Source of the DNA: Blasia pusilla
Taxonomy: Eukaryota
Length of the DNA: 64,000 nt
Direction of reading: 5' to 3'
NCBI GenBank assembly: GCA_050084515.1
Contig: CM114271.1
Coordinates: 16,554,001 to 16,618,000 of the forward strand
Shown here: one piece after another, positions 1-34,065 of the stretch
Layout of the letters: each line of letters starts with the position of its first letter
Numbering within the stretch: position 1 is the first letter of the stretch
The notes under the pieces: model-generated
Databases searched by the model: none
Told to the model about the DNA's origin: nothing
What the model saw: only the letters and a program-made list of their open reading frames with translations
Position numbers and translations under genes: made by a program

Positions 1-3000
1 CACGGCGCCCACTTTTTGTAGGATAGTGAAAGGCCCAATATAGGGAGGATTAAGCTTACGAACTCCTACTAATGATAAATTGGTTGTTGCTAACCAAACC
101 TTGTCTCCTTCACAAAACTCGACATCTCGACGATGAGCATCTGCATATTATTTTTGTCGATTTTGGGCAATAACCAACTTCTCCTTATCAAGTTGAACCC
201 CTTTCTGAATTTGGTCCACAAACTCATTAACTGCAGCTACCTTTATAGGTTCCCTCTTACTTTTCCCTATTCGAGTGAGACTAGAAGGAATTGAGGGATG
301 CTCGCCATGCATTAAAAAGAACGGTGTGATCTTAGTGGAAGAGTTCATGGAGTTATTATATGAGAACTCTACTAAGGGTAACAATGAGTCCCATCCTTGT
401 TGATCCTCCAATGTTAAGGCGCGTAGCATATCCTCAATAGTACGGTTGGCCCTTTTAGTTTGTCCATCAGTTTGAGGGTGATAAACCGTAGACATGGCTA
501 GTTTAGTTTGGAGCAATCCGAATAAAGCCTTCCAAAATAAACTCGTGAAATGGGTTCCCCTATCAATGATAAGCACTTTAGGAAGACCATGATGGACAAA
601 GACTGTCTCGATGTAGATCCTAGCCAACTCTCGTGCAGTCACAGTCTTCTTGGTCGGACGAAGGTGTATCAACTTGCTTAGTCTATCCACAAAGACCACA
701 ATAGAGTCATATCCCGTGATCGTACATGGTAGCTCACAAACAAGATCTATAGTGACTTGTTTCCAACATTTTTGAGGTATTGGGATCGGCTGCAACAATC
801 CTGCTGGTTTTGTGTTACTAGCCTTGATTTGTTGACAAATCCTACAACTCCTTACATATATGTCAACATCTTCTCTCATTTTGGGCCAATAGTACGCTCG
901 TTGTAATCCCTCTAAGGTTTTTCTCAGCTCCCATGTGACCCGCAATGACTGTGTCGTGAGCTTCAGACAATACTTCAGTGCGTAATTTTGGATCTTGTGG
1001 GATCCATACTTTATCTTTATGGAAAACCAATCCTTGAGCCTTGTATACTCTATTGGCATGAATAGCCACGGTAATTTCTTCATCCTCCTTTGTGGCTTTG
1101 GATAACTTTTTCCACCAACTAGAGTGAATCTCCACTTCATTTATGTTATTCATCTGTGGTATACGAGTCAAGGCGTCTGCCAACTGCTTCTTTCCTTCCA
1201 CATAGACAATTTTCATCATGAATTGTTGTCGCCATTCTGCCCATCGAATTTGACGTTTGGAGAGCTCCTTCTGGGACTCTAAGTAGACCAAGGGCTTGTG
1301 ATTAGTCTCCACCACAAACTCCTTATCGCCCAAGTAATGTTTCCAATGTTTGGTTGCCAACACAATAGCAAGTTCTTCTCGCTCAGTTGTATGGTAGTTT
1401 TGCTCCGCTGGCAATAGCTTGCAAGAAAAGAAGGCAATAGGATGTCATCCATCCTCCCATTCTTGTTGTAGTACTCCTCCAATACTAGTACCTGAAGCAT
1501 CTGTGGCCAACTTGATGGGTCGATTAGGATCATACCACTTCAATATAGGGGCTTTGATCAAGGCATCCTTTAATGATTGAAAAGCAATCTCTTGTGATGT
1601 GCCCCAATTCCATTTTTGTCCTTTCCCTAGTAAAGCTGTTAAGGATTGTGAAATTTGAGCAAAACCTTTGACAAATCTTCGATAGAATCCTGTTAACCCT
1701 AGAAAACTCTTCAATTGAGTTTGATCCTCAGGTGCACTCCATTTTTGGATCGCTTCTACCTTCTCACTCATCACTTGAATACCTTCTACGCTTACTCGAT
1801 GCCCTACATAATCAACTTCTGTTTTACCGAACTCACATTTTGACGCTTTAGCATACAACTCATTATCTTCTAGGATTTGAAGGACTTCTCGTAGATGATT
1901 TATATACTCCTCTATCGTTTTACCATAGACTAAGATATCATCTAAGAATACAATGACAGACTTGTCTAAATATGGACGAAAGATATCATTCATTAGGCCC
2001 ATAAAGGTTGCAGGTGCATTAGTAAGACCAAATGGCATGACTAAGTATTCAAAGTGTCCATACCTAGTATTTAAAAGTCTTGTGCACATCTTCATCCGCA
2101 ATTCAAATTTGGTTGTAGCCGCTACGAAGGTCAAGTTTTGTGAAGTATTTTGCTCCTTGTAGTTGGTCGAACAAATCATCCATTCTTGGTAATGGATATT
2201 TGTTTTTGACTGTTTGTTGATTCAGTGCTCGATAGTCGATACACAGTCGCATGCTTCCATCCTTCTTTTTCACAAAAAGGACGGGGGCTCCATATGGCGA
2301 GACGCTTGGTTGGATGAAGCCTTTTACGCAACATCTCCTCCACTTGGGCTTTGCATTCTTCTAATTCTCTTGGAGCTAAGCGGTAAGGAGCTTTACATGG
2401 TGATGTGCTTCTTGGAAGGATCTCAATCTTGTGGTCTACCCTCCGTTTGGGTGGTAACCCTGATGGTAAATCATTTGGGAATACATCTTTGTATTCCTCC
2501 AATACTTCTCTCCACTTGTCTGGTACCTCTGAATATTTTTTCAAACCATAAACATCTCTTATTAAACCTAGGAAACATACAACTTGATGTTTGATGGCGG
2601 TTTTTCCTATTACATATAGGGGTAGGGTTCTAGGATGTGATCTGACTCTGTCTCCGTAAAGCTTCCACTCTCGAGTCGTCACGAGTCTTTTTTCTCCAAT
2701 CTACCTCTGGATTATACTGTTCCATCCAAGGCATTCCCAAGATAACATCATAACGTGCTAACCTAATGACCTTCATCTCCAACTCTTCCAAATACTTTCC
2801 TATCCTCAACTCTACCCTTCGAGGAAGCTTCTCAATCTTTTCTGTTTGCCCATTTGGTAATTCTACCTCTTCTTTTTGATCCCTCTCTAAAGCTAAGCCC
2901 AATTTCATAACTATGGCTCTTGAAAGGAAGTTTTCTGTTGCCCCATGATCAATCAACACTCTAACTTGGGATCCTTCTACTTCCCCATCTATAATAATGA

Positions 3001-4302
3001 GACATGTTTCTCCTCTCTTCAAACCATTTACCTCTACATATTTGTGTCGACCCTCGTCTTTCCTCCTTTTGTTAGAACCAATATATCCGAGAGGCACGAT
3101 TACTGGTGGTTGGCGTTTCCCTGAGGTCCATCTTCTTCGTCATCTTCCTGCATATGCCCTCCTTCAAGATGATTAAGGGGGCGTCGATATGGCCTATTTT
3201 GAGCCTACGAAGACGACAATTCATGGATATATGACCATATCTACCACACTCAAAACATTGGCGTGTATCTCTTCGGACTTCGAATTCTCTCCCTCCTCTA
3301 GGAACCCCGACCCCGTCGGTTCAAGGAGCAATCCCTTGTATGTTGGGGTTCCGATCTCTCTCCATTGGCACCCTTCCATTATACCTTCGCGGCGCATAAC
3401 CATCTCGTGCTTGAAGGTTACCCAACTCCATGGGTGTGGGTCCGTAGTGGTTGTTCATGGAAGCAACCACCTCTCCTCCTCCTTCGTACACATTTGCCAT
3501 ACGTTGGGCACATGCGATTGCTTCATTGATATCTTTTGGGTTGTCTCGAATCATCTCTTGACGCACCTTCTTCTTCAAACCTCTCTTAAACAGATCGAGA
3601 GCTTCTGGCCCACTCATGTCACGGATTTGTATCTACAAGTCACGAAACTCTTCGATGTAGTCCTCCATAGTTCCTTTCTGCTCCAGTCGCCATATTTCAT
3701 TCTAGCAGTGAGGATTGGATTCACAGCTTGGAAATTTTGCAGCAGCCCTTGCTTCATTCCGCTCCATGTAATTTGTTGAGTTGTTTCAATCAAGGATCTC
3801 TCCCATCCTTGATACCATGTCAATGCTCGATCGATTAACCAAGATCTTACGAACATCCCTGCAATATGATCATCAATGTTGAAAAGGGATAAATGGATTT
3901 CCATCCGAGTGATCCAACCCTCTAATACCCCCATGGCTCGACTTCCTTTGTACGGTTCTACCTTGCATGCCTTTGTCATTTTCAATATCAATGAGGCTTG
4001 AGCATTCATCTCCATCACTCTTTGTGCTGCTTGGGCCTCCAATGCTCGTGCCCTTAAGGTTTCGTCACTCTCCCCAAAAGTCACGACACTCGTGGTTTCC
4101 GTCTCCATCCCACCTATCGGTAGAACTCTCTCTCTCTCTCTCTACTCTCATATTTCTGACCGAAGCAACTTCTTGCGCTAATTCTTGGACTTGGTTTTGA
4201 CTTTGATCAAATGCAACTCTCAACTCTCTCAATTCACGAATCATATCCCTCAAAGTTTCTTCCATGATCGCTCCGACTTTCCCTTGATCCTTTACTATCA
4301 CT

Positions 4303-4611
4303 CTAATATAAGATCAAGATATACACCTGCCAATTTCGCACAATAGGGACTACAAAAGGCGGTGTTGAGGCAATGACTTCATTATAATACTCTTGGCCAA
4401 ACTTCCTCACCATAAACTCTCTATATGCTATCTTAGGTTGACAAACCACATGGACTATACATCGAGTGTTAAAAAACACTTGTGAGGGCCTATTCAAATC
4501 CATTCCCCATATCTCCTCTAAAAAATATATATAAATAGTGCAATCCCACACACGATCATATGTAACAATAGGGAGGATCACCGGATAGCGAGACTCCATC
4601 ACTTGCGTCAT
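4303..4611 (-). CDS. Extra ORF upstream of gag in Gypsy A, unknown function
   Basis: 102-aa sense ORF between PBS and gag; protein-like with an internal repeat. No recognisable domain. Confidence 0.3.
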   Translation of the reverse strand: MTQVMESRYPVILPIVTYDRVWDCTIYIYFLEEIWGMDLNRPSQVFFNTRCIVHVVCQPKIAYREFMVRKFGQEYYNEVIASTPPFVVPIVRNWQVYILILY

Positions 4612-4875
4612 GAAAACTTCACCAAAGTGATATACGAGATATCTCGTGAATCAGTGTCTATCTACATATAAGAGTTTGATGGTGAAGGGATTAAACGGAA
4701 ATTAGGAGCCACTCTCGCTCCCCTCCATCCATTACGCAAAAGCAGCCCTTCCCCTTACTCTACTTGCGGCTCTATAACCACCGACCTCTAACAACCTATC
4801 TACTCTAAAAAAGTATATCATTACTTAGTCATCCTTCCAAGAGGGGTAATCCACTCTCGTTGGAAGAGCAACCTT

Positions 4876-4887
4876 GCTCTGATACCA
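4876..4887 (-). promoter_or_regulatory. Primer-binding site complementary to tRNA-iMet 3' end
   Basis: Minus strand reads TGGTATCAGAGC one base inside the LTR's terminal CA. Confidence 0.92.
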
Positions 4888-4888
4888 T

Positions 4889-5241
4889 TGTAACTCTCCA
4901 GCTCACAGAACCACTCTAGAGTTGCTCAAAGGTAGAATGCCCTCAAGGCCTCTCCTCTTCCTTTATATACTTAGAGATAGGTACAATGAAGACAAATTAG
5001 CTCTACCTATCCTTATGCCACATGTCCTACTCTCATAGCATGAGAGAATCTCCTTTGGAGTCTAATGTCCCAACCTCATCTTCCTCGACCTCATCCTTAT
5101 CTCCCTTTTCACCAACCTATGGCCCCACTCTCATCTTTATCTCATGTATCTTATCTTTTCTCTTTTTGGTTGATTCTTTCCCACTTATGCGCTTCATGTC
5201 ATAGATTCTAACTTAACTATGACTAACAAAGGATGGTTACA
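4889..5241 (-). repeat. 5' LTR of Gypsy A (353 bp)
   Basis: Bounded by TGTAAC...GTTACA inverted termini and directly adjacent to the PBS. Interrupts the pol of Gypsy B. Confidence 0.9.
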
Positions 5242-5501
5242 CCTCCCAACGGAACCATCTGGCCCGTTGTAGGATCCAATCCCACTCTCTAGCACCCACG
5301 GTGCTCGCAACGCTGCCAGTACAAAGGTACTCCAAGATTACTCCATCATCATGAATATCTTGGCCACTTGTCGTCTCCTCACTGGCCTTGGGATCTAAGG
5401 ACTCTCCACTAGACCTCGCCATCAAAGTCTCCACACTTTGGCTCTCCATAGCCAACATGCCTAAACAAGCCTACGCATGCCATCCTGGCACTAACTCCTC
5501 A

Positions 5502-6900
5502 TCACTCTCTCCATGCCATCGAGCTCCAGTCGCATCTTCGCTGCCTCGGGCATGGGTTACAACTCAACCCATCTGCATCTTGGCTGAGCGTCTTAGGTCT
5601 ATGTACCACCTGAAAATCATACTCCTGCAACAATAGAGCCCATCTCGCAAGCTTCTCTATAAGCTTGTTGGACTCCATCAACCATTTCAGTGGTTGATGA
5701 TCAATGATGATGGTAAAGGGGTTGCCAAATAAGTAACACGTGAAATGCGCGATAGCCCACACTGCAGCCAAGCACTCACCCTCATATGAGTTGTACTTCG
5801 CCTCTGCATCGTTGTTCGAGCGGCTAGAGTAAGCCACCACGAACTCTCTACCCTTCATCATCATGCTGGGTGAGCACCGCTCCAAGCCCCAACATGCTCC
5901 AATATGTGTGCAACTGGAAAGGACGTCCCCTGATCGGTCTCCTCAAGATGGGCGCGGACGTCAACTTGTCCTTGAGGAACTGAAATGCTCGCTCTTGCTC
6001 ATCTCCTTAGTGCCACTCGTGATCCACCTTGGTCAGCAAGGTTAGCGGCTTCGAAATCAAACTGAATCCCTTGACGTACCGCCGATAAAAGTTCGCCAAT
6101 CCCATGAATGTGCGAACACGGCTCACATCTGTAGGGCGTGGAATGCAAGAGAGATAGCTTCTACCTTTGTCTGTTGAACACCAAGGCCCCCTGGGTATAT
6201 TGTATGACCCAAGTACTCAATCTGTTCATAGAAGAACTTGCACTTGCTTGGATGTAGCTTTAGCCCATGTAATTGCAATCGTTGAAACACCTCCTCTAGA
6301 TGTCGGTCATGCTCCTCAACCGTGGCACTAAAGACTATGATATCATCAATATAACACCTAGCAAAATCCAGACCAACCAAGATCCTATCCATGATCCTCT
6401 GAAACTCAGTCGGGGCGTTCTTTAACCCAAATGGTAAGAACCGCCACTAGTACAAACAATCCTTCTCATAAGGATCGATGCCCCAAAATTCCGTCTTCTG
6501 TCTGTCCTCCAATCTGATAGGCAACTGATGATATCGGGCTCGCAAATCCAATAAACTGAAGACCTTTGCGTGACCAATCGCATCAAAGATCTCCTCAGGG
6601 GTGGGCATGGTATACCTATCGGACTTTGTCTTCCAATTGATAGGTCAATAATCCCCACACATCCGTCTATCCGTCTAGTTGCTATGCACATCCTTCTTGG
6701 CGGGCATGATAGTGGCGGATGCATACTCCCCATGCGACATCTCCACTACTCCTGCTCCGAGCAAGTCCTGGCTCCTACTCTAAATCAGAGCCCTCTCCAT
6801 ATCACTATACCTGTAGGGAGGTCGAAAGATCGGCGTATCACTCAACAACTCAATGCGGATCCCCAGTCCCTTCAGCGTACCCAAATCCTCCATGCTAAAC
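5502..6900 (-). pseudogene. Reverse transcriptase-RNase H of Gypsy B
   Basis: CYIDDIIVFS, LKLHPSKC, YLGH, then RNase H AYSSRS/YEGECLA/DHQPL/RWALLLQEYDF. Confidence 0.92.
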
Positions 6901-7344
6901 GCAAAGCAACTCCTATAACTCTTGAGGAACTGATGTATTCGGCGCTGCTCTCCTCCTGTCGACTTAGGGCCTATATTTGGCTCTCAAGTCTCCATTGTGA
7001 CTATGGTAGGACTCTCCGGCGCGGGTATCGGTGGTTGCTATGGTGCAACCCCGTCTCAAACAACAACACTCAACCACTCTCTTGCATCCAACTGCAAACT
7101 CTGATCTCCTCCACATGAAGTGCCCAAAACCACGCTCAATATTGTGGCTATCATCTCCTGGCGTACCTGCAAAACATCCCAAGAAGTCCAAGGGTGTCTC
7201 TCCCGATCTCCCCTCGTGTGTCAATCTCCTCGGGTCTCGCCCCCAACCACTGCCTCCACCGTCTCGGTAGGCATGGGGCTCACCAACGCAACCGCTGTGA
7301 TCTGTCGCGATCTCATCCGACGCTGCTCAGCCACTTGCAAGCCG

Positions 7345-8280
7345 AAGATCCATGTCAAGTAGTTCAGGTCCATCGCCTAACCCAAGACATGGCGTCGTGA
7401 GGCCTCTGATATTGACGGTTCTGCCATCACTCCTGTGGGAAATCCCATCACCCGCTCTCTCTCGTCGGCGTTGGGCTCCACCAACCTCTAAACTTGGTCA
7501 TCCCAAACCAATCCAGGACTTGCCTCCTTGTATGGATAGGAAGTAGGAAAACTCACAAACGTGGGAAAGGCTGCCCGCGGCTTGCCTACCGTGTTGACCA
7601 CAATCAACGGTGGTTGATCATCGTGCCTCACTACCTCTGAGCGATGACCTGGATCCAGAATGGAATCCACTAACAAATGGGATGGGCGCTCCACTCTCGC
7701 ATACGCCCTCTATAACATCGCATGGGGCACCAAGTTGGTCCACCATAGACGCGGGCAATGGGCTCTAGAACCTACACTCGCCGCATCCAAGAACACTGTT
7801 GGGCGATCCAGGCACCCACCTGGTGAGCACTCGTCACCACCCGTGATCTGGAGTCTCCTAAGATTGATACATTCTCCAGAATGTAGGCTGGAGAAAGAGA
7901 CTGGTGCTCCTGCAACTACCGTAAGACCCTCAACATCTCCCAAAATAACCTGGACTGAGTGTCTGCCAAACCGCTGCCTCGTCCAGCACTCGATTGGCCC
8001 TGACATGGCCAACCGGCAATGACCAAATCAATGGTCCCTACCCTTTCTAAGTCTTGCACCCCCAGCAACAAAATATCCCTCGGTAGGGAACTCTGGTACC
8101 CCTGTACCGCGGACGCAGACAATAAGTCGGGAAAATGTAGGCGTAATTGCGCCACATGTTGTAGTGAGATACACCTCGTAATGTCATCACTCTCCACATA
8201 CAGGTACCACTGCACTTGCACTCCTGCCTGCAAAACAACAGCTAACCAGTGTTAATCCCTCCAAAGAGATCTAACACTCA
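7345..8280 (-). pseudogene. C5-cytosine DNA methyltransferase domain (DNMT3/DRM-like motif style) within Gypsy B pol
   Basis: Motif I VLDLFGGI (~8254-8277), motif IV DLVIAGWPCQGQSSAG, motif VI YILENV (~7870), motifs VII-VIII LDAASVGSRAHCPRLWWTN, motif IX ERERVMGFP (~7440-7465), motif X RRHVLG*AMD (~7370-7400). Canonical order; stops and frameshifts present. Confidence 0.9.
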
Positions 8281-9307
8281 AATATCCTTCTTCGGCGTAC
8301 ACCACACAATGGGTGTGGTATCCAAGGGTGTCATCGTAGCACTCCCTACTACCTTGGGTTCCTCAAATCCGTCAGGCTCCGTGCAAACGCCTCACTCCAC
8401 GCGGTCTGCACATGCTCATCTGCCAATCGTCGAAGCTCCTCAGTCGAGCCCCACAGCGGCACCTCTCCTCCACGGAATGATGCGGCTACCATAACACTCC
8501 TCTCGATAGAAATGTTAGGAACGGGAGTATCCTCTGCATGGACATGTCCCTCAATCAAATCACTAAGCCAAGTGATGGCACTGCTAAATGCTGCTAAGGT
8601 CGCCATCTCTCCTGGCCGTTGCTCAATCACTGCATCTGTGAATCGAACGGGTAATGAGCTAAGGCGCCCATCACTTGATTGCCATCCTGGTCTCTAGGTG
8701 GCTGACTCCTCCCAGTAATCCAGGGAAAACCCCATCGGGTATAATAGTGCTCCACCAACCGAGACGTCGTAGGACTCTACATCAATCACTATCGCCTTGG
8801 CTCGCACCACGGACTCATCTGTAGGATGTCCCAGGCGAATCCTCACCACAACCTCATGTCGGGTGATATACTGTGTGGTACTCGCTCCACCCAAGGATGT
8901 TTGTATCCGGAATGGACAACGCTCCACATCAGCTCTCATCAAGCCCAATCCTCTAAATGATGCTTTTCCCAACATCAGGGGTTGCGCTCTTGAATCCAAC
9001 AAGACGCGCTACGGACTAAAAGCTCTACCTCAAGGGACTCACCAACTGGAAGACCTCTCCTCAATTATCCAGCAACACAACATCAGGAGAAGCCATGGTG
9101 TTGAGCATCAACAATAGGAGTCGTCGTACTCGCTTCTCCCATCACCCTCCGTGCCTGCACACCAACAACATCACCAACTCTCCACGAACTTTGATGAGGA
9201 CCCATCGATGGGGTCCTCATCGCTTCGGACAATGTGAAAGATTGAGGAAGCCTAGTCTATTTTCTGGCTTCCCCTCACTGTGGATCCAACTCTATGGTTG
9301 CTCCACG

Positions 9308-10326
9308 CGTCACAACTGCGGCGGCTTCCATCTGGGCAACCCCGCACATCCAACCAAGATCCTCCACATCTGTGGTTGCTCCATATGATGTCGATGCCAC
9401 AGATCCGACATCGGGTAACCTCAATGCCATAGCGGCAATCTGCTCCTATAGCTGCTAGTAGTAGAAGTAGCAGCAAACTTCTATTGAGTACTATTTAGTT
9501 AGCTAGTTCTTCTAAAAAAAACCGCAAATAGTAATTAAATTAGGGAATTTTGAAACCTTCCTTTGGATGGACCAGATGGTGTATCAAGATGAAAATCAGG
9601 GTTAGGAACTCATGAAAAATTTAGCTTAACTCATGAAAAATCCTTGTAAAATGAAGAAGATAAGTTGTTTTGTGAACTACTTAATTTTTATCTCCTGGAT
9701 AGTAAAATTTGTACATCTAAATTTTTTTGGCTCATGTTGTGCATTTACAATTCTAAATCTCAATTAATTTTACGTCCAAAACATTCATTTTATGGTAGGT
9801 TGAAAGTGGTTTCCTTGACATTTTTAACAAGGCTTTCACAATCATGTCATTTTGGAAATCATGAATAACGTTTTTCTAAATGATCTATGCATATATTTTT
9901 TCTTTTCCAAACTAATTTCAAAAACATGATCTCATCGAAATAAGTGATGAAATTAAATAAGGTTAGTGACTATTACTTCTCAAGCGCACCTTGGTTTTTA
10001 AGGTCTAGAATTTTACGACTAGCTTCTCCTAAGGAAAAGTGATCATTCCTAAATAAATGAGTACTAGTAGATGACAAGAAAATCTCAATGGCCTTAACTT
10101 CCATCCACATGATACTATAGTTTCTTCTTTATTCTATTTCGAAGAAAATGCGTAAAAAATCCCCTTAATTTAAGCCGTCACAACTGCGGCGGACTTCCAT
10201 CTGGGCAACCCCGCACATCCAACCAGGATCCTCCACATCTGTGGTTGCTCCATATGATGTCGATGCCACGGATCCAACATCGGGTAACCTCAATGCTATA
10301 GCGGCAATCTGCTCCTATAGCTGCTA
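9308..10326. repeat. 150-bp direct duplication (9308-9457 and 10176-10326) flanking a ~720-bp AT-rich insert
   Basis: Both copies read CGTCACAACTGCGGCGG...CTCCTATAGCTGCTA with only a few differences. Confidence 0.9.
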
Positions 10327-13620
<3,294 letters not shown>

Positions 13621-14674
13621 GTGAGTGCTGACCATAAAGTGTTAGTGCAGAGATTCAAGTGTTATAATCGTTGGTGGCTGTTAGAGCTTTGAGCTTCTCT
13701 GGATGTCATCAGAGTGATGGCGGGTGTTTCTTTCCAACCAATGGTTCAAAATGACTCTGGGTACTTTTTGTCCAGATTAAGGAGCCTTCCTTTTGAAGTG
13801 AAGGTCAAGATCTTTACCATGAGCAGGCCTACTAGTCTCTTGGACCGTAGCCTTGCCCTCCCAGAAATTTGCAAGGGCAAACATTTGTTACTTTCGTGCT
13901 TACTCTGACCGTTATTGGACCCCAAATAGGCGACAAAGGCAGACTAGGAATTGGCTATTCCGTTGAGAAGATCGTCATGTGTATGTGCGATTTGTAGACA
14001 TTGTTATATGGAGGGAGGATAGAGGAGCACTATTAGCATGGCTAATGCTTGGGGTCACCCGCAAAGTCACTCTTCATATCTGTCATGATGTAGGGGGGAT
14101 TCTCCTTGGCGAGGATCATCCCATTGTTAGGAAAGCACGAGCCATCATTGAATATACGCGTTCTATTGGTGGCCACACGGTAGAGGTTATTCTTGAGTAT
14201 TGTAATACTTTGGAAGTTGTAACCTCGGGGGACTTAGTATGCATTCGCTCAAGTCGTAGAACGATTTCTGGGAAAGTTTGCATATGTTGCCTAAATATAT
14301 GTCGTGATGCTGCAGTATGGCAATGAGTCAGATCCGTAGCCTAACTTGAGGCCCCTCATATGGCAGACGGATAACATTTGTAATTGTAAACATGAAGACA
14401 ATAAGAGGATCCATTTTTGCCAATCATGAATTGAGTCACCGTTATTTGTCTTCATTGATGATATTGGGCTTATTTTGAGGGGGCATGGTGTGTGTACACT
14501 CTTGACCTTGGACGATAAAAGATGATGTTACGGGGATGTATGCAACCAAATAATTAATAAGAAGTAATGATTTCTATAGAAACAATTGCTTCTTATGTTA
14601 CTTAACTTTAATTTGTTAATCGTTGAATTTCTACACCTAATAGTAATCTTATTGTCTTTTGTCTCTACATGTAG

Positions 14675-17349: not shown

Positions 17350-19790
17350 TAAAACCTCTATCTTTTCTTACCTTCTCTCTAAAAACTTTTCCTTAAAACC
17401 CTCTTCTTCTTCTTTCTCTCCCATCTTTTCTCCCCTCCTCCTTAACGGAGTCCAAAAATCAACATCCAATGGTGAGAACAAAATATACTTCAATGTGAAC
17501 ATAAAATTGAAACAAAGACTTGGAACAATCGTACTCAAAGCCCTCCTTTTCCTTCTTCACCCCTCTTTTTCTCCCCTCCTCCTCAACCAGGGGTTAAAAT
17601 ATCAAGAAACTTTACCCAAAGGGGGGCACTCCAACCCCATGAACAAAAAAAAAAAAAAACAAATGACCACACACACATGGAAACCCTAAACAAGGTCTCT
17701 CATTTTTGGTTTGAGCATGGAAGCTAAGCTGGCATATCTAAACTGTTGAAGTGGCCAAGGGATTTAAGGCAAGGACATGTGCCAAGTTTCAACAACATCC
17801 TATGGTGAGAACAACATATCCTTCAATGGGAACATAAAAATGAGAAAAAAAAAGACTCGGAACAATCATACTCAAAGCCCTCTTCGTCCTTCTTTATCCC
17901 TCTTTTTTCTCCCCTCCTCCTCAACCAACTATCCAAAAACTAGGAAACTTCTCCTAGAGGGAAAATCCAACCACAAAAACACTTGGGAAAATAAAAAACT
18001 TGAAATAATCACTCACACATGGAATTAAAAAATTTAAACCCTAAACAAGGTCTTTCATTTTTTTATGCGCATGGGGGTTCATATAGCAGATCTGAACCGT
18101 TGAACTTTTGGAAAGGTCTAATGAAAAGACATAAGCCAAGTTTCATCACCATCCAATGGTTGGAAGAATAGATAGCTCCAAGATAGCTCCATGTTGACAT
18201 GAAAATGACACAAGGACTTACCCTAAGTCCTTCTCCTCCTTCTTGACCCCTCATTTTCTCCCCTCCACCCTCAACCAGTAGTCAAAAAATCAGGAAACTT
18301 GTCCCAATGGGGGAATCCAACCATAGGAGCATAGGGGTAAAGAAAAAACTTCAAATAATCACTCACACATGGAATTAAAAATCGTAAACCCTGAAAATAG
18401 TCTTTCTTTTTGGTATGAGCATGGAGATATAAATAACATATCTGAACTGTTGAAGTTTTGGAGAGGTCTAATGCAAAGGCGTGGGCCAAGTTTCATCACC
18501 ATCCAATTGTTGGAAGAAAAGAAACCTCCATGTTAATATGAAATGACACAATGACTTGAACAATCTTGCTGAAAGTCCTCCTCCTCCTTCTTGACCCCTC
18601 ATTTCTGCCCCTCCATCCTCAACCAAGGGTCCAAACATCATGAAACTCTAAAGAATCCTACTCAAAGCACTCTTCCTACATCATGCCACCTCCTTTTCTC
18701 CCCTCCCTCGTCAACCGAGGGTCCAAAAATCAAGAAACATTTCCAAGAGGGGCAATCCAACCACAAGAACATAGGGGAAAAGAAAAAACTTTAAGCTACC
18801 ACTCATACATGGAATTAAAAATTGTAAACCCTAAACAACATATTTCATTTTTGGTATGATCATGGAGGTTTAAATGCCAAATCAGATACAGTTGAAGGTT
18901 TGGAGAGTTTTAGGGTTTAGGGTTGGGCCAAGTTTCATCATCATCCACTGGTTGGAAGAAAAGATAGATCCATATTACATGAAGATGCCACAAAGACTCG
19001 AAAGAATCCTACTTGAAGCCCTTTTCCTCCTTCATGACACCTCCTTTTCAACATCATCCAATGGTTGGAAACAAAGATACCTTCCATGTTAACATGAAAA
19101 TGGCATAAAGACCTAAAACAATTCTATTCAAGTCCATCCTCTTCCTTCTTGATCCCTCCTTTTCTACCCTCCCCCCTCAACTAGGGGCTAAATGGGAGAT
19201 CTGAACTATTGAAGTTTTGGAGAGATCTAATGACAAGGATTGTGCCAAGTTTCATCACCATCCACTGGTTGGAAGAAAAGATAGCTCCATGTTAACATGA
19301 AGATGCCACAAAGACTCGAAAGAATCCTACTTGAAGCCCTTCTCCTCCTTCATGACACCTCCTTTTCAACATCATCCAATGGTTGGAAACAAAGATACCT
19401 TCCATGTTAACATGAGAATGGTATAAAGACCTAAAACAATTATATTCAAGTCCATCCTCTTCCTTCTTGATCCCTCATTTTCTACCCTCCCCCTCAACTA
19501 GGGGTCCTAGATGGGAAAAGTTTTGGAGAGATCTAATGAAAAAACAAGTTTTCACCATCCCTGGTTGGAAGAAAAGATAGCTCCATGTTAACATGAAGAT
19601 GCAAAGACGAAAGAAATGCCCCTCCTCCTTTTTTTTTCATCAATGGTTGGAAACAAAGATACCTTCCATGTTAACATGAGAAAAAAGACCTAAAACAATT
19701 ATATTCAAGTCCATCCTCTTCCTTCTTGATCCCTCGTTTTCTACCCTCCCCCTCAACTAGGGGTCCAAAAATCAGGAAACTTTTTCCGTG
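17350..19790. repeat. Complex AT-rich tandem/satellite-like repeat (~300-500-bp diverged units)
   Basis: Recurring blocks CCAAGTTTCATCACCATCCA..TGGTTGGAAGAA, CACTCACACATGGAATTAAAA, CTCCCCTCCTCCTCAACC; near-identical copies at ~18925-19190 and ~19245-19500, plus a deletion-riddled third. Confidence 0.8.
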
Positions 19791-22123
19791 AGGGGCACAA
19801 ATGTTTTTTTTTGTGTTCTTGGGGTAACAAGCAACAGAGAGAAAAAAAGTGTGTTGAAACTTAGGGTAAGAAAGGATATCCCAACAACAATAAAAAAAAC
19901 ATGGTAACATTGGAGCATGAAATCATTTAAACATATCATTCGATGTTTATGACTCAATATTACTAGGCGAGTGAAACAAGTATGACTCGTCGTGAGTAAA
20001 GGGTATTGATAAATACCTTAGTCATAAACAAATGACTAGATGAGTTGTACGAACCTAAAATTTATGACTAAACCATTTTAGTCATAATTTGAGTTATTCT
20101 TTCGGTGAGTCATCTAAAGTCTAGTCATAAAAACCACCCATTTCTTCTAGTGCATTGCGGTTATGTGATGGAAAAAAATTGCATGGTGGACTAAAATGGA
20201 GTTGATGGAACATTAATACAACATGAAGGAAGTAACATCGCTTGTCACTTACTAATATTATGAAAAATTTGTAGAATGGAGGAGTAGAAAAAAAATCGAG
20301 GAATAGACAAATACTAACACGAAGCATGATGAGTCAAAATGTCTTTATTTTGGCTCACATATCCATTTACATCAAACGGATGAGAAATCATAGTGGAATA
20401 ACTTGCATTATGCAACCCCTGCACTTCAAATTGACTTAGCGCCCAAGTGACACCAGAATACGTGGTAGCAAGAGAGAGAGAACCAATTAATACGACTTAG
20501 TAGTAGGGGCCGTAAATATAACTATCCTTACAAAACACATTAATAACATTGTAAAATTTATGTATTTTGTCAAGGATCTTTCGATACCAAAATTTAAATT
20601 TCTCTAAATCTAACTAAGTGTGTGAATGGATTCTTTTTATGGAGAGTGTACCCTTGAAAACATGGGAAATTATGTTAAACTTTTGAAGCAAGAAAAGAAA
20701 ATATTGTTTAAGATGAGAAAACAAATTATGTAAGTTTGCATAGCACATGCATGCCCAATAATAAATTTGTATCCATCTATATCTATATTATTATTGGAGA
20801 GTGTCTTCTTGATTTGCAAACATCTATCAACTTGACACTTAGCACTTGGACAACAAGAAAATGTTTTCCATTCTATGGGCAGCATTCCATTTGTGAATTA
20901 GCCCTTTCACTTGTGTGCATGGCACGGGTTGTACACTAGTTTTTATTTAGTGGGGAGTGCCCTTTCATTTTGCAAACACCTCTCATCTTGACACTTGGCA
21001 CTTTCAACCAATTGGATCATTCGCCTTCTAAACTAATAAGATCATTTGAAATTAATTTAAAATGGTACTTGGGAACTTTGAAAGTTAATTATGGGAGGTA
21101 ATTGAAATCTTATACTAGTAGAAATTTAAGGAGGCTTGAAGAATTTCCATTATTTTCTATCCCAAGTTAAAAACTTGATTTTCCAAGGCTTGTCTATAGT
21201 GTATGATGGCAATTAAGTTTGGTCTTGGAAACTAGTTCATCATAACTAAAACTTTCGAGAAGCATCCCAGAATGTCCAACGTGTCTAAGCTAGAGTTGAG
21301 GGACTTTTGTGTATTGTGTATGCTGACAATTTATTTTAGTCTTGCTAGCAATGAATGGATCTGACCCTATTTTGTGATATTAAGAAAGACCTACAGATCT
21401 CAAAAAGTGAAATTAAGTGCGTGAGGGTGCTGTAGAATAGTGGAATTGATCATTGAAGGTGTTTGCAATCAAGAGAGATCAAGGAGGAGTTTGAAGACCT
21501 GCTGTTAATGGAGAATCTAGAGACCGTGCCTGCTGTTAATGTGATGTTTCCCGATCTGTGCTTGTTCGCGCTCTTGTTTGATTTTAAGCCTTGTGCAAAG
21601 TATGTTTGGTTCTTGTGCCTTTGAGCTGCCGCCTCCGTCGGCTCAGTTTGCTTATGGTGGTCTATTGACATTGTAGCTCATAGTCAATCTCCAACTCTCC
21701 AACCATCTGCCTTAGGCTGACACTCTGCTGATCTTCCACTATTTGTCTTTCCGTTGTTTTTGTCGAGGGTTCCAACATTGTGTCGTCTTGACAGACTCTC
21801 GTCGTTGTGTTGTATTTCACAGATGGCCCGGCCTTGTGCGTTCTCCTTGGGATGTCATAGCTAAGCTACATTTTCTTTAGGGATATTCGTTTCTGCCTAT
21901 TCGATTATGTGCTCCGATTGTTGAGTTATGCTCTCGGCGCTCGCTTTTCAGTAAAGCTTTGCTATGTTGACCCTCAACGCAGGTCCTTTTTGCATGTGTT
22001 TGACAACTTTTTATTAGGACTTTAGGCAGGCTTAGGGTTTGGTTTTTTTTGTTGTACACACATAAAAACTCTTGTGGCTCGACTCTACACTATTAATTAT
22101 GTGTCTCTTTAGTGTGTACTAGG

Positions 22124-29027: not shown

Positions 29028-30494
29028 AGGCTAGGGTTTGCTCATTTCAGGTTTTTTGTTTTGCGATCTCGATTGCTCTTCAGCGCAGCAGCGGACCAAA
29101 TACCAAGGGGCGCTTTACACGGCGACTCATCGCGAGACGATTCAAGCGACTCATCAAGGTGACTCATCGAGGCGACTCATCAACGCAACTCATCAAGGCG
29201 ACTCATCGTGCACAGAAAGTAATGTTGTTGTCGAGGAGATGGCATTTTCGGGAATAATGACGAGGAAAAAAACTCAAGCAAGCAAGATTGGGAGCTTCAC
29301 TCCCAAGTCCAAGACTCCTGCGTCACCATCTCCAAGGCCTTGTTCGGCCAATGAGATAAGGCAGCAAGAGATTGAGGAGCGCGATAGGGAAGCGGAGATG
29401 CACATGCATGAGCTTCTTGCAGAACGTGTTAAGGAGGCAATTGAAAAATAGAGCTTAGAGGTTGAGGCATCGCAGGCCTTGAGGAAAAGGATCGCCGAGG
29501 AGAATCGTGAAAAGAAGCGTTTGGACGCGTTGGTGAGGAGAGTAGAATTGGCAAAAGCTCGAAGGGAAAAAGTGATTTCCATTGAAGAAAGCCCGCTCCG
29601 TCCAACCAAAAGTGTTGAGATGCAGGAAATGTCTCCGATGAAGTCCGGGGACACAATCAATATAAAATCGACTGAGGAAACGGGCAAAGTTCAAGTGATG
29701 GACGATGAGGTCATGAGGACCGCTAGCGTGGAGATGGTGGACATCTCTGAAGAAGCAGGAGAGCGGTCTTCCTCGTCTCTTAGCCCTGCGGAAGAAATCA
29801 ACCTCTATCGGATCGACGAGTTTCCAGTGGACTTGCTAGCTGTTGTCCGAGAGCAGTTGGCGGGCCAAGACACCGACCCAATCTTCGAGCGGGTAAGATA
29901 CGATCTTTGTTCTTTGAATTATGTGAAGGCCCATGTTGCAGTTCATTGGCAATTCAGTGTAGTTTATTGAACTTTTCCCGGTTGTGACATGTGGTAAAGC
30001 AGATGGCACTGATGGAGGGCCAGAACGCCCTGAGAATTCCACTTTTCCCATTGCGGACAATGGAGTACGTCCGCGAAATTCAGTCTGACGAGGATATTGC
30101 GAAGCTGAAACAATCGGCAGCGACATCATCCTATGTCGATAGCTTCCCTCCGTTCTATGTTCAGCCTTACGATGAACATGGAACCCAAGCGTTGGTGAAG
30201 GAGGAGGACTTGGAGGCGCTCGACACATTCTGGAGGATGAGAGATCAGGAATTCAGAAGGGCGATTGAGGGGACCGAATTCAGCTGGATGCGGAACCTGT
30301 ATTTCTTCATCTGGGATGGAAACCACATATTCATGGCGTGGACCCAGTTTGCAGAGGAGCGCCAAAACTCATTGGAGGCGCATTTTTGCGTGAAGGCAAT
30401 CATGCTACATCCATACCCTCATCACATGGCGACGGTGGAGATGGCCATGCATGCCATGAACATGTAAGTTTCCTCTTCCTTTATTTTGATTGGT

Positions 30495-31118
30495 GCAAAT
30501 CGTCGGACTCTGACGAGTTGTTTAACTAGTGGTAACAAAACTCGTTGAAGTCCAACGAGTTGCTTGACTGGACACTATTTTTTGGATGTTTTTGGCCGAA
30601 AGCAACTCGTCGGAGTCCGACGAGTTGCTTGACTGGCCGTTGTTTTTAGGATGTTTTTGTCCAAAAGCAACTCGTTGGACTCCGACGAGTTGCTTGACTG
30701 GCCATTGTTTTTAGGATGATTTTGGCTGAAAGCAACTCGTTGGAGTCCGACGAGTTGCTCGACTGGCCGCTGTTTTTGGATGTTTTTGGCCGAAAGCAAC
30801 TCGTCGCACTCCGACGGGTTGCATTCGCTGGCACGGTAAGGTGATCGGAGTAGGGGAGCTTGATTTTTGGCATCAAATTGCAGCTTTACTTGAAATTGCG
30901 CAACCTGTCGGACTCCGACGGGTTGATATGTTCACTTTTCTCGCGGAGAACACTCTCTGAATATAAATTATCGACAACCCGTCGGAGTCCGACGGGTTGA
31001 TACTAGGCAATCACAAATCTGAATGCAATCCGTCGGACTCCAATGGGTTGCAAAATTTAGCTCGTAGCTACCATTCCGACCATGAGGTGTGACGACCTGT
31101 CTGAGTCCGACGGGTTGC
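30495..31118. repeat. Array of 10 palindromes in accessory-gene intron 1 (65-bp tandem units at ~30537-30822)
   Basis: GCAACTCGTCGGAGTCCGACGAGTTGC repeated with near-identical spacers (TTGACTGGCC...TTTTGGCCGAAA), then dispersed copies at ~30900, 30974, 31025, 31092. Confidence 0.92.
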
Positions 31119-31685
31119 AGGAACCCATATAGCTTGCAAAATTTCTTATATTGAGTTTGGATGTGCATGATTGTATTCGAGGGGAATGTCACCCACCACT
31201 AGATCTAGGATTGCGATCGGGTGAAGAAAGTGCTAACAACGCACCCGGCAAAGTACAAGGGGTTCTTAGGCCACGCCCTTAGAAATGAGATGCTGGCAAA
31301 GGGGGCTCAAATAAAATAAAAAAACTTGGGCAAATACATTTATTTTCCAAGATGCAGCCGTGACAATTCTTTGCTCGTCAAAGATAATGGCCGCCAAGAA
31401 GAGCGCTTCATTGGAGCTGGAGCGGAGGGAGAAAGTGTGTGTGTCTGAGCGTGCTAAGTTCATCCAAGCTGCAGTATCTTCAACTACGAAGTACATTGCA
31501 AGCAAGATGCAGCGCTACATAGCCTTTCTCAACCCTGAACTTGGCCCCGATTTCTACAAGGAGCTGAAGGCGATAATCAAGCGCCAGCGGAAGAGGGATG
31601 AAGATCCGCAGGGTCGGATTGGGGAAAAAGTGTCTCTCCAACGATTTTCCTTGTCTAGAATTTCAGAATTTAGGAGAATCCGATT

Positions 31686-32503
31686 GATGAAAATCAATCT
31701 CGAGGGCATAGAGGCTCTAAAAAGAGGCTCCGTGAATGGTCATTCACACCATCCTTCTCGAGAAGTCCATGGTGTCTCTGATCCTGAAAAAAATCTCGTT
31801 CGGAGGAAGCAAACTGGAGAGTGTTGAAGATTTTGAACTTTGGTTGAATGGTCGGACGATGTTCAAGGATCACATCCTCCGCACACCTTGATGAAATTTA
31901 GTCTCGAGGGCATAGAGGCCCAAAAGGGCGGCACACCATCCTCCGGTGTCGAGAAGATCTCCCATGCTCCGTGAATGGTCATTCAGGGACGCGTTGCGGC
32001 TTCTCGAGAAGTCCATGCTCGTGGGTCTCCAAGCGAAGCTGAAAAAAATAGAGCCCGTTCCGGAGGAAGCAAACCTGGAGAGTGTTGAAGATTTTGAACT
32101 TTGGTTGGATGACATGCGGGACAAGCCCATAAAAAACCCAGGCTTCAGGACGATGTTCAAGGATCACATCCTCCCTCAGGCACACCTTGATGAAAATCAG
32201 TCTCGAGGGCATAGAGGCCCAAAAGAGGGCGACACACCATCCTCCGGGTGTCTCTGATCCAGTGATCTCCCACTGGCTCCGTGAATGGTCATTCGGGGAT
32301 GCGTTGCGGCTTCTCGAGAAGTCCATGCTCGTGGGTCTCCAAGCGGAGCTGAAAAAAATAGAGCCCGTTCCGGAGGAAGCAAACCTGGAGAGTGTTGAAG
32401 ATTTTGAACTTTGGTTGGATGACATGCGGGACAAGCCCATAAAAAACCCAGGCTTCAGGACGATGTTCAAGGATCACATCCTCCCTCAGGCACACCTTGA
32501 TGA
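31686..32503 (+). repeat. ~310-bp tandem triplication inside accessory-gene exon 2
   Basis: ~31970-32195 and ~32280-32503 are near-identical (LEKSMLVGLQA...KDHILPQAHLDE); a first copy from 31686 has many small deletions. Confidence 0.9.
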
Positions 32504-33763
32504 AGAAATAGAGGCGAAGAAAAGGGATTTTGCAAAGAAAAAGTGAGATCTTCAGGAGCAGGTGGCCGATGCATCTCGACTAAGAGCTGCCCAACGCATG
32601 GTGTTCAGGTACCTCGTCCATTGTAAGAATGCAGGTTCATGGAGAAAAATACCGGCATCCTACAAATTGTGGGCTTCTCCGCCTGATGGAGTGACATTTT
32701 CCATGTACGACATGGAGATGGCTCAAAGCATGTCCGACTCGGAGGTGGAGAATTGCCCGATCTGGCTGGACTTCAATGACCCTGAGGACATATTCGAGAA
32801 AAATCTACGCGTGCTCTATGATGCAGTGGCCGTAGGTAGGGATGACATCCCCAATTTTGTGCAGCCTGAAGACTTTTTTGAAGGAGATGCGGAGGAGCAA
32901 ACCATCGAGACAGCGGAGTTGGTGTCCAAGGTCGTCGCCGCCAAGGAAAAATCTACACTGGGTCTCAAATCCAAGGCGAGTGGATCGAAGAATTCCGAGG
33001 CCAAGTCTTCCCAAAAGAGGCTGAGAATTCAAGGCGAGAGGCGGAATCGTCCGGGCAAGCGAGGAGAGAGGGTCGGACCAGGTCCTCCACAAAAAAACTC
33101 CACCAGAGTCTGAGGTAATAGAGACCCCAACAAGCCAACCCCAGGCTCGGAAGAAGCGGAAGCGAGAGCTGCCAGGTTTGTCCCAAGGAGCAGATCAGGA
33201 TGTGGAATACACTCCATCATCCTTGGGAAGACATAGAGAAACAATGACCCGGACAAGCGTCATCATTCACTCCACGAATCTTCTGGATGAGCTGAAAAGT
33301 TTCAGTTCCCAAGCGTCGACACCCGCCATCGACAAATTGACAACGCTGGGACGGAAGCTTCAACGAAATGGGCACGCTCCTTGGATGGTCCATGGGGAGG
33401 TTGAGGAGGTGGCGGTGGATCTCCTTATCGCTGATTTGCCCTCAGGGTTGCGCTTGTGGGACGAGAATCCGTCCGACGGTATCCCAGATTGGAATGTCCC
33501 TCTTTCTTATGACCAGATCGCGCTCCTATTTTCCTTTGCAGACGCTTATCTCAGTGACAGGGGCTGTTTCTTGGTTTTGACTAGAGGGAGCGAGGAAGAG
33601 CTCTTCAACCTGTTGTGCGTCAAGAGGTCGCTGAAGTGGAGGACGGCGCAATCGTGGGTCATCAAGAACGAGTACCCACTCCGATCCGCGACAAGTCAAA
33701 TCCGTGTAAGGGCTCTAAATCCATATCCAAATTGTCTTGCTCCGACATGTTGCATCTTTGCAT

Positions 33764-34065
33764 GCAACCCGTCGGATTGTTTGAGGTGGAGACTTCGGTG
33801 GTGCAATTCGTCTGAAAGCGACGGGTTGCAAATTTACCGCAAGTCTCCATTGGGTGAATGCAACCCGTCGGAACTCGACGGGTTGCAAGTGCTTATGCTT
33901 TTCCTTGTGTTTCTGGAATGATGCAACCCATCTGAATGTGACGGGTTGCTCTTAGCCAACCATGGGCTGCTCTAAGCCAGCAACCTGTCGCCTTCCGACG
34001 AGTTGTTCATGGCAAAAAAATCACTAACACTTGTAAAACAACATGTCGGACTCCGATAGGTTGCT
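33764..34065. repeat. Cluster of 6 palindromes in the intron splitting the MTase-like domain
   Basis: Copies at ~33764, 33803, 33860, 33923, 33980, 34040, all within intron 33706-34227. Confidence 0.88.

Follow-up and report, generated by a model that had tools for sequence, protein, structure and literature searches.

A decayed Ty3/Gypsy retrotransposon copy with a DNMT3-like methyltransferase between protease and reverse transcriptase in a liverwort-like genome

The window, by which we mean the whole 64-kb stretch of DNA that was analysed, holds on its minus strand the remains of a retrotransposon with detectable homology over 5240-9454, matching the coordinates 5242-9457 of a preliminary description made from the same letters. 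Read from 9454 to 5240, the order is gag fragment, aspartic protease (PR), C5 cytosine methyltransferase (DNMT), linker, reverse transcriptase (RT) and RNase H (RH) (Table 1), and the central claim of that description, a Gypsy element in which a C5 DNMT separates protease from RT, is borne out by this layout and by the Pfam matches of both enzymes. The Gypsy-type hallmark is present, namely an RT with YIDD followed by an RT-linked RNase H, and no integrase lies between PR and RT in the window copy. The DNMT C-terminus and the RT are covered by a single reading frame running from 7796 to 6126.

Table 1 Features of the DNMT element and its surroundings; profile values refer to a family profile built from 13 bryophyte gag-PR-DNMT proteins (1246 positions).
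Feature	Positions	Strand	Remarks
Gag fragment, middle part only	9173..9454	-	3 in-frame stops; profile positions 372-466/1246, i-E 8.8e-14
Retropepsin-like aspartic protease	8376..9032	-	3 stops; profile i-E 3.2e-75
DNMT motif I (VLDLFGGINT)	8246..8358	-	separate reading frame; 1 stop; profile i-E 3.7e-8
DNMT motifs II-VI, catalytic GWPCQG (IV) and ILENV (VI)	7799..8245	-	1 stop; profile i-E 6.2e-72
DNMT motifs VIII-X and target-recognition region	7332..7796	-	3 stops; profile i-E 5.6e-92 over 7802-7143
DNMT-RT linker	6987..7331	-	contains TAG at 7040-7038
Reverse transcriptase, YIDD	6126..6983	-	4 in-frame stops; Pfam RVT_1 E 9.2e-29
RT thumb/connection and RNase H	5505..6159	-	two frames; tblastn with P0006, P0173, P0005
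Short tail 3' of RNase H, expected integrase place	5240..5548	-	1 stop
Different Gypsy, 5' LTR	5228-4889	-	TG...CA, 340 bp; read from sequence
Different Gypsy, primer-binding site TGGTATCAGAGC	4887-4876	-	read from sequence
Different Gypsy, gag-PR-RT-RH-INT ORFs	4313-148		
TLC gene	62657-63445		

The gag fragment is 48% identical to residues 77-162 of the relative P0177 (tblastn), and a profile search for the gag N-terminus (profile positions 1-371) gave no match anywhere in the 64-kb window. Neither the protease nor the gag pieces of the window have a Pfam match, and the window protease was identified solely through aligned relatives and the D-S-G-A motif. An alignment with 27 relatives gives RVLLDSGAQPLMLGK as the protease family motif, and RVLLDSGAQ of the family has become RVLLDSRAQ in the window, so that the active-site DSG reads DSR. 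In the relatives P0006, P0219 and P0216 the aligned protease region matches Pfam Asp_protease_2 at an E of about 1e-4, below the curated cut-off. DNMT motifs I, IV, VI, VIII, IX and X, reported earlier to lie in canonical order on one strand, are all recognisable in that order in the window (8358-7332, minus strand) and in the family, and the PF00145 search that had been proposed as a check gave E 2.2e-11 and 44.2 bits (cut-off 22) on 7799-8245 with the one stop read through. Motif I of the window aligns with LELFGGIGTGL of the family and LSLFDGIATGL of DNMT3A. The C-terminal DNMT piece, 58% identical to Calypogeia fissa CAM6104272.1, reads DAASVGSRAHCPRLWWTN, ERERVMGFP (IX) and RRHVLGxAMD (X), and its motif VIII is SRAHCPRLWWTN where the family has SRAHRPR. 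The RNase H is matched by Pfam RT_RNaseH (PF17917, E 5.6e-25) and RT_RNaseH_2 (PF17919, E 2.9e-11); no homology to an integrase was detected beyond it, P0005 aligning over residues 1-482 only (tblastn).

The window copy is a dead, partial fossil without functional consequence. Its 1377 codons include 21 in-frame stops (13 TAG, 7 TGA and 1 TAA), the frame changes at least 7 times and the active sites are damaged; 5 of the stops, 2 of the frame changes and an R to C substitution in motif VIII fall in the DNMT part. Catalytic motifs are at least 90% conserved in the family, and the window deviates at 6 of 75 such columns; the CpG observed/expected ratio is 0.67 in the copy versus 0.94 in the host gene. 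Because of these stops and frame changes, and with no integrase and no LTRs, the copy is unable to methylate anything. No LTRs, flanking direct repeat pair or target-site duplication were found around the DNMT element in the window, which says little about the family because other insertions and the window edge cut both ends. With the LTRs, integrase, gag N-terminus and target-site duplication missing, the term LTR retrotransposon therefore rests, for the window copy, on homology to complete relatives. Directly past the RNase H a different Gypsy has inserted into the DNMT element and continues beyond the window start; its RT is 34-39% identical to that of the DNMT element, and we take its primer-binding site to be of the tRNA-iMet type. 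On the 5' side lie a duplication and then a 5'-truncated LINE. This different Gypsy is all that a search of the window for a second copy of the DNMT element returned, and an Rfam scan of the window gave 0 matches. The land-plant host, assumed conditionally in the preliminary description, is supported by the TLC gene, whose top named matches are liverworts at identities of 77% (Marchantia), 76% (Riccia) and 74% (Calypogeia), with Physcomitrium at 70%, an affinity drawn from one tested gene with small margins (77% vs 70%).

The preliminary description had suggested looking for intact family members; full-length relatives of 2138-2374 aa have the order CCHC-PR-DNMT-RT-RH-INT, the integrase being H2C2-rve and placed after RT-RH. 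In Copia elements the integrase precedes RT. Among the best 150 library matches to a query of the DNMT C-terminus plus RT, 57 carry DNMT. Across 253 proteins, DNMT precedes RT in 28 and follows RT-RH in 47, and a further 40, being gag-PR-DNMT pieces or other fragments, show no match to RT; the family has two architectures, PR-DNMT-RT and RT-RH-DNMT-INT-PHD. The earlier claim had been set against the case that other copies lack the DNMT; they carry it at the same place. Among copies with a named source, the nearest are found in Marchantia polymorpha, Riccia, Calypogeia and Sphagnum, all as uncharacterised proteins with 50-63% DNMT identity; more distant relatives come from Closterium algae. To the same element family belong Marchantia MARPO_0091s0058, MARPO_0008s0049, Mp_4g09160, Mp_8g17980, Mp_6g11220 and others, as well as entries of Riccia sorocarpa, Calypogeia fissa and Sphagnum spp. 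These bryophyte relatives are collinear with the window over gag-PR-DNMT(-RT-RH) and are annotated as hypothetical or unnamed; several are long open gene models, in contrast to the stop-ridden window copy. We found no literature on Mapoly0008s0049. In the clusters of 30 relatives Klebsormidium does not appear by name, the named sources being Closterium and Calypogeia only. The earlier suggestion that the element extends the range of such retrotransposons stands as far as land-plant members are concerned, and does not stand as something special to this window, since in Marchantia polymorpha alone no fewer than 10 proteins annotated as 'hypothetical' belong to the family.

RT and DNMT trees, a comparison also proposed beforehand, agree. 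The DNMT-bearing rows form one clade in an RT tree of 150 rows (FastTree, 99) and in one of 63 rows that we selected from it (IQ-TREE, 100/99), and fully covered rows without DNMT inside this clade number 0/24, in a sequence set that was seeded by a query holding both DNMT and RT and is hence enriched for fusions. The window RT is sister to Marchantia MARPO_0091s0058 (100/99 in the 63-row IQ-TREE tree; 74% identity), in a DNMT tree of 90 rows the window groups with Marchantia, Calypogeia and Sphagnum in a clade of 22 rows supported at 100, and the nearest neighbours are the same by either domain. As judged from these trees, the methyltransferase belongs integrally to a Ty3/Gypsy lineage and has been inherited along with it.

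How often the enzyme was acquired is a separate matter. Bryophyte elements could have captured a host DNMT3 independently of the Klebsormidium elements and form a convergent new family, a reading that we consider improbable. It would fit the placement of DNMT at two different polyprotein positions, a comparison set in which Closterium is the named charophyte, and more than one capture of DNMT in eukaryotes, as presented in the relevant parts of PMC5890265 and bioRxiv 10.64898/2026.05.21.726589. Bryophyte and Closterium elements of both architectures nevertheless share the single RT clade described above, and their DNMT domains can be aligned end to end at 30-64% identity. A chance juxtaposition, in which a host DNMT3 fragment or pseudogene came to lie among unrelated retrotransposon fragments in nested repeats, is very improbable. 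The patchwork neighbourhood of nested Gypsy, 5'-truncated LINE and local duplication and the several frame changes of the copy would suit it, but it is contradicted by the fusions in relatives, where the same PR-DNMT-RT order and spacing recurs in 28 proteins of other genomes, including the single ORFs of 2138-2374 aa, by the collinearity of MARPO_0008s0049 from gag through PR to DNMT, and by the identical nearest relatives of DNMT and RT. Equally improbable is a domesticated, host-serving DNMT gene of retrotransposon origin: relatives are listed as genes, some of them named DNA (cytosine-5-)-methyltransferase by UniRef, but the window DNMT is broken by stops, frame changes and the motif VIII substitution, and the relatives retain gag, PR and RT around theirs.

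By profile score and fold, the predicted methyltransferase is DNMT3-like, in the sense of similarity and not of phylogeny. A PDB sequence search with the window piece 7799-8245 found DNMT3A as best matches (E 2.3e-4), and the C-terminal DNMT piece by itself gave 0 matches. With a 31-row family profile against the PDB, the best 29 of 59 matches are DNMT3A/3B/3C (E 2e-20 to 2e-14), which align in three collinear blocks; DNMT3A scores 76 bits, tobacco DRM 38.6, HhaI 30, Arabidopsis DRM2 29.5 and DNMT2 20, and no DNMT1 or chromomethylase was found at E 0.01 or better. The family profile also matches the Ty3 RT structures 4ol8 and 7q5b. An AlphaFold model of the relative P0174, 60% identical to the window (pLDDT 69.5, pTM 0.75), returned DNMT3A/B/C in all 36 rows listed by Foldseek (ranks 1-49), with TM-scores on the target chain of 0.72-0.80 for catalytic-domain-only chains. 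In common with the catalytic domain of animal DNMT3A/3B, its best profile and fold match, the family has the motif order and the blocks LFGGI, ENV, IDA..AHR.R.W.N and ER..GF; it differs in having about 20% identity, PCQ instead of PCN in motif IV (from the alignment) and a longer motif VIII-IX stretch. Host DNMT3s carry PWWP/ADD chromatin-reading domains. Pfam found neither PWWP nor ADD in the relatives scanned, and a catalytic domain without them is as expected of a captured module. In the ESM Atlas only generic PF00145 clusters were seen, one streptophyte and the rest phage, which we regard as a lead only. Of the DNMT3/DRM-type resemblance noted earlier, the DNMT3 half holds and the DRM half does not: a rearranged, plant DRM-type enzyme, to which the weak matches of DRM structures might point, has a negligible chance of being right, being ruled out by the un-rearranged motif order in window and family, where DRMs have VI-X before I-V (PMC5890265, in its description of DRM), and scoring half as high as DNMT3A.

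Overall, we put at roughly 85% the probability that the locus is a decayed, partial Ty3/Gypsy copy, in a bryophyte host that is most likely a liverwort, of a streptophyte lineage with a DNMT3-type domain between PR and RT (gag-PR-DNMT-RT-RH-INT). In live members of this lineage the DNMT domain would be translated as one product with Gag and the protease and taken into the virus-like particle. Its substrate there could be the cytosines of the freshly made cDNA or else DNA close to the site of integration, so that each new copy would carry the host's methylation mark from the moment it entered the genome. We infer both the enzyme activity and the self-methylation of cDNA by the element. The TAG in the linker of the window copy aligns with the natural end of the gag-PR-DNMT proteins of 7 relatives (the ORF1 end), and such a conserved in-frame stop after DNMT in bryophyte members suggests that gag-PR-DNMT may be produced abundantly, with RT-RH-INT arising by read-through.

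More tentatively, a single ancient Gypsy lineage may have carried a DNMT3-type enzyme through the streptophytes into land plants. It would persist in many copies both in Sphagnum and in liverworts such as Marchantia polymorpha, in two architectures, and its bryophyte members would make a gag-PR-DNMT product upstream of a conserved leaky stop. We think this possible and hold it with more doubt than belief. If true, transposon-encoded de novo methyltransferases would be a regular, so far unreported part of bryophyte genomes, and could mark the cDNA of the elements themselves, contribute to host methylomes or swell counts of host 'DNMT' genes. A retrotransposon equipped with its hosts' own class of silencing enzyme turns the usual arms race around, a rare case that has so far been detailed only for dinoflagellates and one charophyte alga. 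With a many-copy Gypsy-DNMT3 lineage in land plants, including the transformable Marchantia, the gain that a transposon may draw from carrying a DNMT would become testable through methylomes, expression and genetics. Annotators should beware that, among bryophyte gene models labelled 'DNA methyltransferase', some are transposon polyproteins.

The preliminary description was also right that DNMT-carrying retrotransposons had been reported before: de Mendoza et al. 2018 (Nat Commun 9:1341, PMC5890265) describe KnitGypsy-Dnmt3, a Gypsy retrotransposon of Klebsormidium nitens with a DNMT3-like domain, and DIRS elements of dinoflagellates with one. By layout and by that description, the window element is of the Gypsy-DNMT3 kind. 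The survey, as set out there, covered 8 streptophytes, with no liverwort and no Sphagnum among them. In the literature we found Gypsy-DNMT3 or KnitGypsy-Dnmt3 by name only in that paper and the 2026 preprint, and no report of a land-plant Gypsy-DNMT3, although supplementary figures of PMC12344493 may show retrotransposon DNMT3s from bryophytes. Like KnitGypsy-Dnmt3, the present family has an un-rearranged DNMT3-like domain inside the Gypsy polyprotein ORF of a streptophyte and catalytic residues conserved across copies; unlike it, the host here is a land plant and not an alga, and the window copy is dead, the likeness being drawn from the published description. We found a single published assay of a domain from a Gypsy-DNMT3: the Klebsormidium domain, tested in yeast, produced no methylation, a result that its authors considered inconclusive (PMC5890265). 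SymbioDIRS-Dnmt3 of dinoflagellates likewise joins a DNMT3-like domain and RT in one Pol ORF and occurs in two domain orders, but as a DIRS element with a tyrosine recombinase it belongs to another retrotransposon class and host lineage, and it is for its domains, not for those of Gypsy-DNMT3, that the paper reports methylation in yeast, de novo and at CG.

A C5 DNA methyltransferase (DNMT) domain lies between the protease (PR) and the reverse transcriptase (RT) of a decayed Ty3/Gypsy retrotransposon on the minus strand. The DNMT motifs listed in the preliminary description were all found in the window translation in canonical order: VLDLFGGINT (I), GWPCQG (IV), ILENV (VI), SRAHCPRLWWTN (VIII), ERERVMGFP (IX) and LGxAMD (X). 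The Pfam check proposed there was also borne out, with the middle DNMT frame, its single stop read through, matching PF00145 at E 2.2e-11 with a score of 44 bits (cut-off 22). RVT_1 matches the window RT (E 9.2e-29) and RT_RNaseH the RNase H (E 5.6e-25). Against a profile of 13 bryophyte relatives, the three DNMT pieces reach i-E values of 3.7e-8, 6.2e-72 and 5.6e-92 and the protease 3.2e-75, so the domain matches of this copy, judged by sequence, are far above chance level. The protease gave no match in the Pfam scan and was recognised through an alignment with 27 relatives, which have the motif RVLLDSGAQPLMLGK in common and in which the active site reads DSG, whereas the window has DSR.

Features of the DNMT element and of the Gypsy element nested in it (window positions, each group in element order)
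Feature	Position	Strand	Remark
gag fragment	9454-9173	minus	first in element order
Retropepsin-like protease	9032-8376	minus	
C5 cytosine methyltransferase	8358-8246, 8245-7799, 7796-7332	minus	three reading frames
Linker DNMT/RT	7331-6987	minus	
Reverse transcriptase	6983-6126	minus	with YIDD
RNase H	6159-5505	minus	
Short tail after RNase H	5548-5240	minus	
Different, better preserved Gypsy	148-5228	minus	inserted in DNMT element; continues past window start
Nested Gypsy 5' LTR	5228-4889	minus	340 bp, TG...CA; read from sequence
Nested Gypsy primer-binding site TGGTATCAGAGC	4887-4876	minus	read from sequence
Nested Gypsy ORFs (gag, PR, RT, RH, integrase)		minus	after primer-binding site

The window copy itself is dead, without any function left. 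The 1377 codons of its homology path include 21 in-frame stops (13 TAG, 7 TGA and 1 TAA), the path changes frame seven times, and the motif VIII arginine is lost (SRAHCPR, against SRAHRPR in the family), although 69 of 75 family-conserved DNMT columns still match. The observed/expected CpG ratio is 0.67, similar to other repeats in the window, compared with 0.94 for the host gene, which encodes a TLC domain; this low value is the pattern expected of long-methylated DNA.

On the 3' side the DNMT element ends at approximately 5240, directly adjoined by the 5' LTR of the nested Gypsy, the primer-binding site of which we take to be that for tRNA-iMet. Because this second element runs past the window start, any integrase or 3' LTR belonging to the DNMT element would fall outside the window; no LTR pair was found within it. 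On the 5' side gag homology stops at 9454, and positions 1-371 of the gag part of the bryophyte profile have no match anywhere in the window. A 133-base stretch of the gag fragment is directly repeated at 97% identity (9325-9457 and 10194-10326) around 736 AT-rich bases; either a local rearrangement or an insertion whose target duplication was unusually long may account for this. A 5'-truncated LINE on the plus strand (approximately 10327-13650) adjoins the duplicated gag fragment; it contains a partial endonuclease, a 453-codon RT ORF (11568-12929) and more ORFs to 13391, and a (CT)n microsatellite comes next, at approximately 13520-13620.

To place the copy among its relatives, the single-frame read 7832-6126 (DNMT C-terminal half, linker and RT, with stops as X) was searched against 1.84 billion representative proteins. 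Among the best 150 matches, 57 also align with the DNMT C-terminal half and 48 with the N-terminal half. Word-index searches and cluster members enlarged the set to 253 proteins, a sample enriched for fusions since the seed query held both DNMT and RT: the DNMT precedes the RT in 28, as in the window (type A), and follows RT-RNase H in 47 (type B); another 40, either gag-PR-DNMT pieces or other fragments of the DNMT, do not match the RT; and 138, including 30 homologues of the TLC host gene, lack a DNMT. Pfam scans of representatives give the order CCHC-PR-DNMT-RT-RH-INT for full type A polyproteins (2138-2374 aa) and RT-RH-DNMT-INT for type B, in many cases with a PHD finger at the C-terminus. 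The type B arrangement, with the DNMT between RNase H and integrase, is seen in P0010, P0008, P0047, P0020, P0027, P0012 and 41 other related proteins. The PHD finger occupies the C-terminal place that the chromodomain has in chromoviruses.

A FastTree RT phylogeny of 150 rows (nine near-duplicate cluster members being left out, as was any row with <200 aligned RT residues), with the nearest DNMT-less RTs in the protein library as outgroup, puts all DNMT-bearing rows in one 73-row clade (support 99), and this clade contains none of the 24 DNMT-less rows whose length would reveal a DNMT in either of the two positions. An IQ-TREE phylogeny of 63 rows that we picked from this tree agrees: support is 100/99 for the DNMT clade and 100/98 for type B, which forms a single RT clade, and the window RT is sister to Marchantia polymorpha MARPO_0091s0058 (100/99; 74% identity). 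In a DNMT-domain tree of 90 rows, made by quick search, the window DNMT belongs to a 22-row clade (support 100) with Marchantia, Calypogeia and Sphagnum, and type A is joined with bryophyte DNMT fragments (support 99). The RT and DNMT trees are thus concordant: the DNMT domain was inherited together with the element rather than inserted separately.

The preliminary description noted a resemblance to DNMT3/DRM-type enzymes, and of this pair the DNMT3 half holds. In PDB sequence searches with single window pieces, the best solved relative of the N-terminal DNMT piece is DNMT3A (E 2.3e-4), and the C-terminal piece has no match. With a family profile from a 31-row DNMT alignment, the best 29 of 59 PDB matches are DNMT3A, 3B and 3C (E 2e-20 to 2e-14), aligned in three collinear blocks corresponding to motif I, motifs IV-VIII and motif IX. 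Other structures score far lower (tobacco DRM 38.6 bits, M.HhaI 30, Arabidopsis DRM2 29.5 and DNMT2 20), and neither DNMT1 nor chromomethylase appears among PDB matches to this profile at E 0.01. We modelled P0174, an intact relative with 60% identity to the window domain (AlphaFold pLDDT 69.5, pTM 0.75). Foldseek returned DNMT3A/B/C in 36 of the 36 PDB matches listed (ranks 1-49), with target-chain TM-scores of 0.72-0.80 for chains containing the catalytic domain only. By similarity of profile and predicted fold, the family DNMT is therefore DNMT3-like. The rearranged DRM type is excluded because the motif order is canonical.

Seven gag-PR-DNMT proteins (P0208, P0209, P0176, P0177, P0175, P0178 and P0181), including two from Marchantia and one from Calypogeia, share a C-terminal end at one aligned site approximately 50 residues past the HPW(S/T)xW block. 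At this site the window carries a TAG (7040-7038, minus strand), the DNMT and the RT sharing one frame; P0150 has a leucine and reads through. RT-first proteins of the P0005 cluster start just downstream, and Marchantia gene models spanning DNMT and RT omit this stretch. The protein ends suggest that a conserved in-frame, possibly leaky stop divides gag-PR-DNMT from RT-RH-INT in bryophyte members. The main product would then be gag-PR-DNMT, with RT-RH-INT made by read-through.

The closest named DNMT relatives (50-63% identity) comprise at least 10 M. polymorpha entries, Riccia sorocarpa, Calypogeia fissa and four Sphagnum species, in every case annotated as hypothetical or unnamed proteins. 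MARPO_0008s0049 is collinear with the window from gag through protease to DNMT, and remoter type A members occur in Closterium strains NIES-53, -54 and -65. The TLC-domain gene (62657-63445, plus strand) is intact and has a single exon; its identity is 77% to M. polymorpha, 76% to Riccia fluitans, 74% to C. fissa and 70% to Physcomitrium, and 29 of 30 homologues carry PF03798. This gene, the only clear host gene in the window, points to a bryophyte host, most probably a liverwort other than M. polymorpha. Elsewhere the window contains a tandem-repeat block (17400-19800; periods of approximately 318-350 and 440 bases, 60-99% identity between copies), a 229-base direct repeat (31966-32194 and 32276-32504; 99% identical, 310 bases apart) within a long-ORF region (29452-33921), and a 179-codon minus-strand ORF (39107-39646) whose translation, by eye, looks like a Copia-type integrase core.

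Throughout a deep Gypsy clade, the polyprotein retains a DNMT3-type catalytic domain that looks intact. In live members the enzyme may be produced and packaged with Gag, and could then methylate either the cDNA of the element or the DNA where it lands, in which case new copies would bear the host's methylation mark. This idea was put forward by de Mendoza et al. for DIRS-DNMT3 elements, the DNMT domains of which gave CG methylation in yeast; the Klebsormidium Gypsy DNMT domain gave none in the yeast assay, a result the authors consider inconclusive (PMC5890265).

Gypsy-DNMT3 elements were first described in 2018 in Klebsormidium nitens (PMC5890265), in a survey of eight streptophytes, none of them a liverwort or Sphagnum (supplementary file 3). 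A 2025 paper (PMC12344493) and a 2026 preprint (bioRxiv 10.64898/2026.05.21.726589), in their available text, give the case merely as ‘streptophytes’ and cite the 2018 work. No report of such elements in land plants was found in the literature searched, a scope outside which lay subscription journals, bioRxiv supplements and the supplementary figures of PMC12344493. The latter labels streptophyte retrotransposon DNMT3s ‘LTR Copia and DIRS’, whereas the 2018 paper it cites says Gypsy; the integrase after RNase H in the family polyproteins fits Gypsy. The window element is a dead, newly found Gypsy-DNMT3 copy of a kind already known, and its value is that it points to a land-plant-wide Gypsy-DNMT3 family, unannotated in public genomes.
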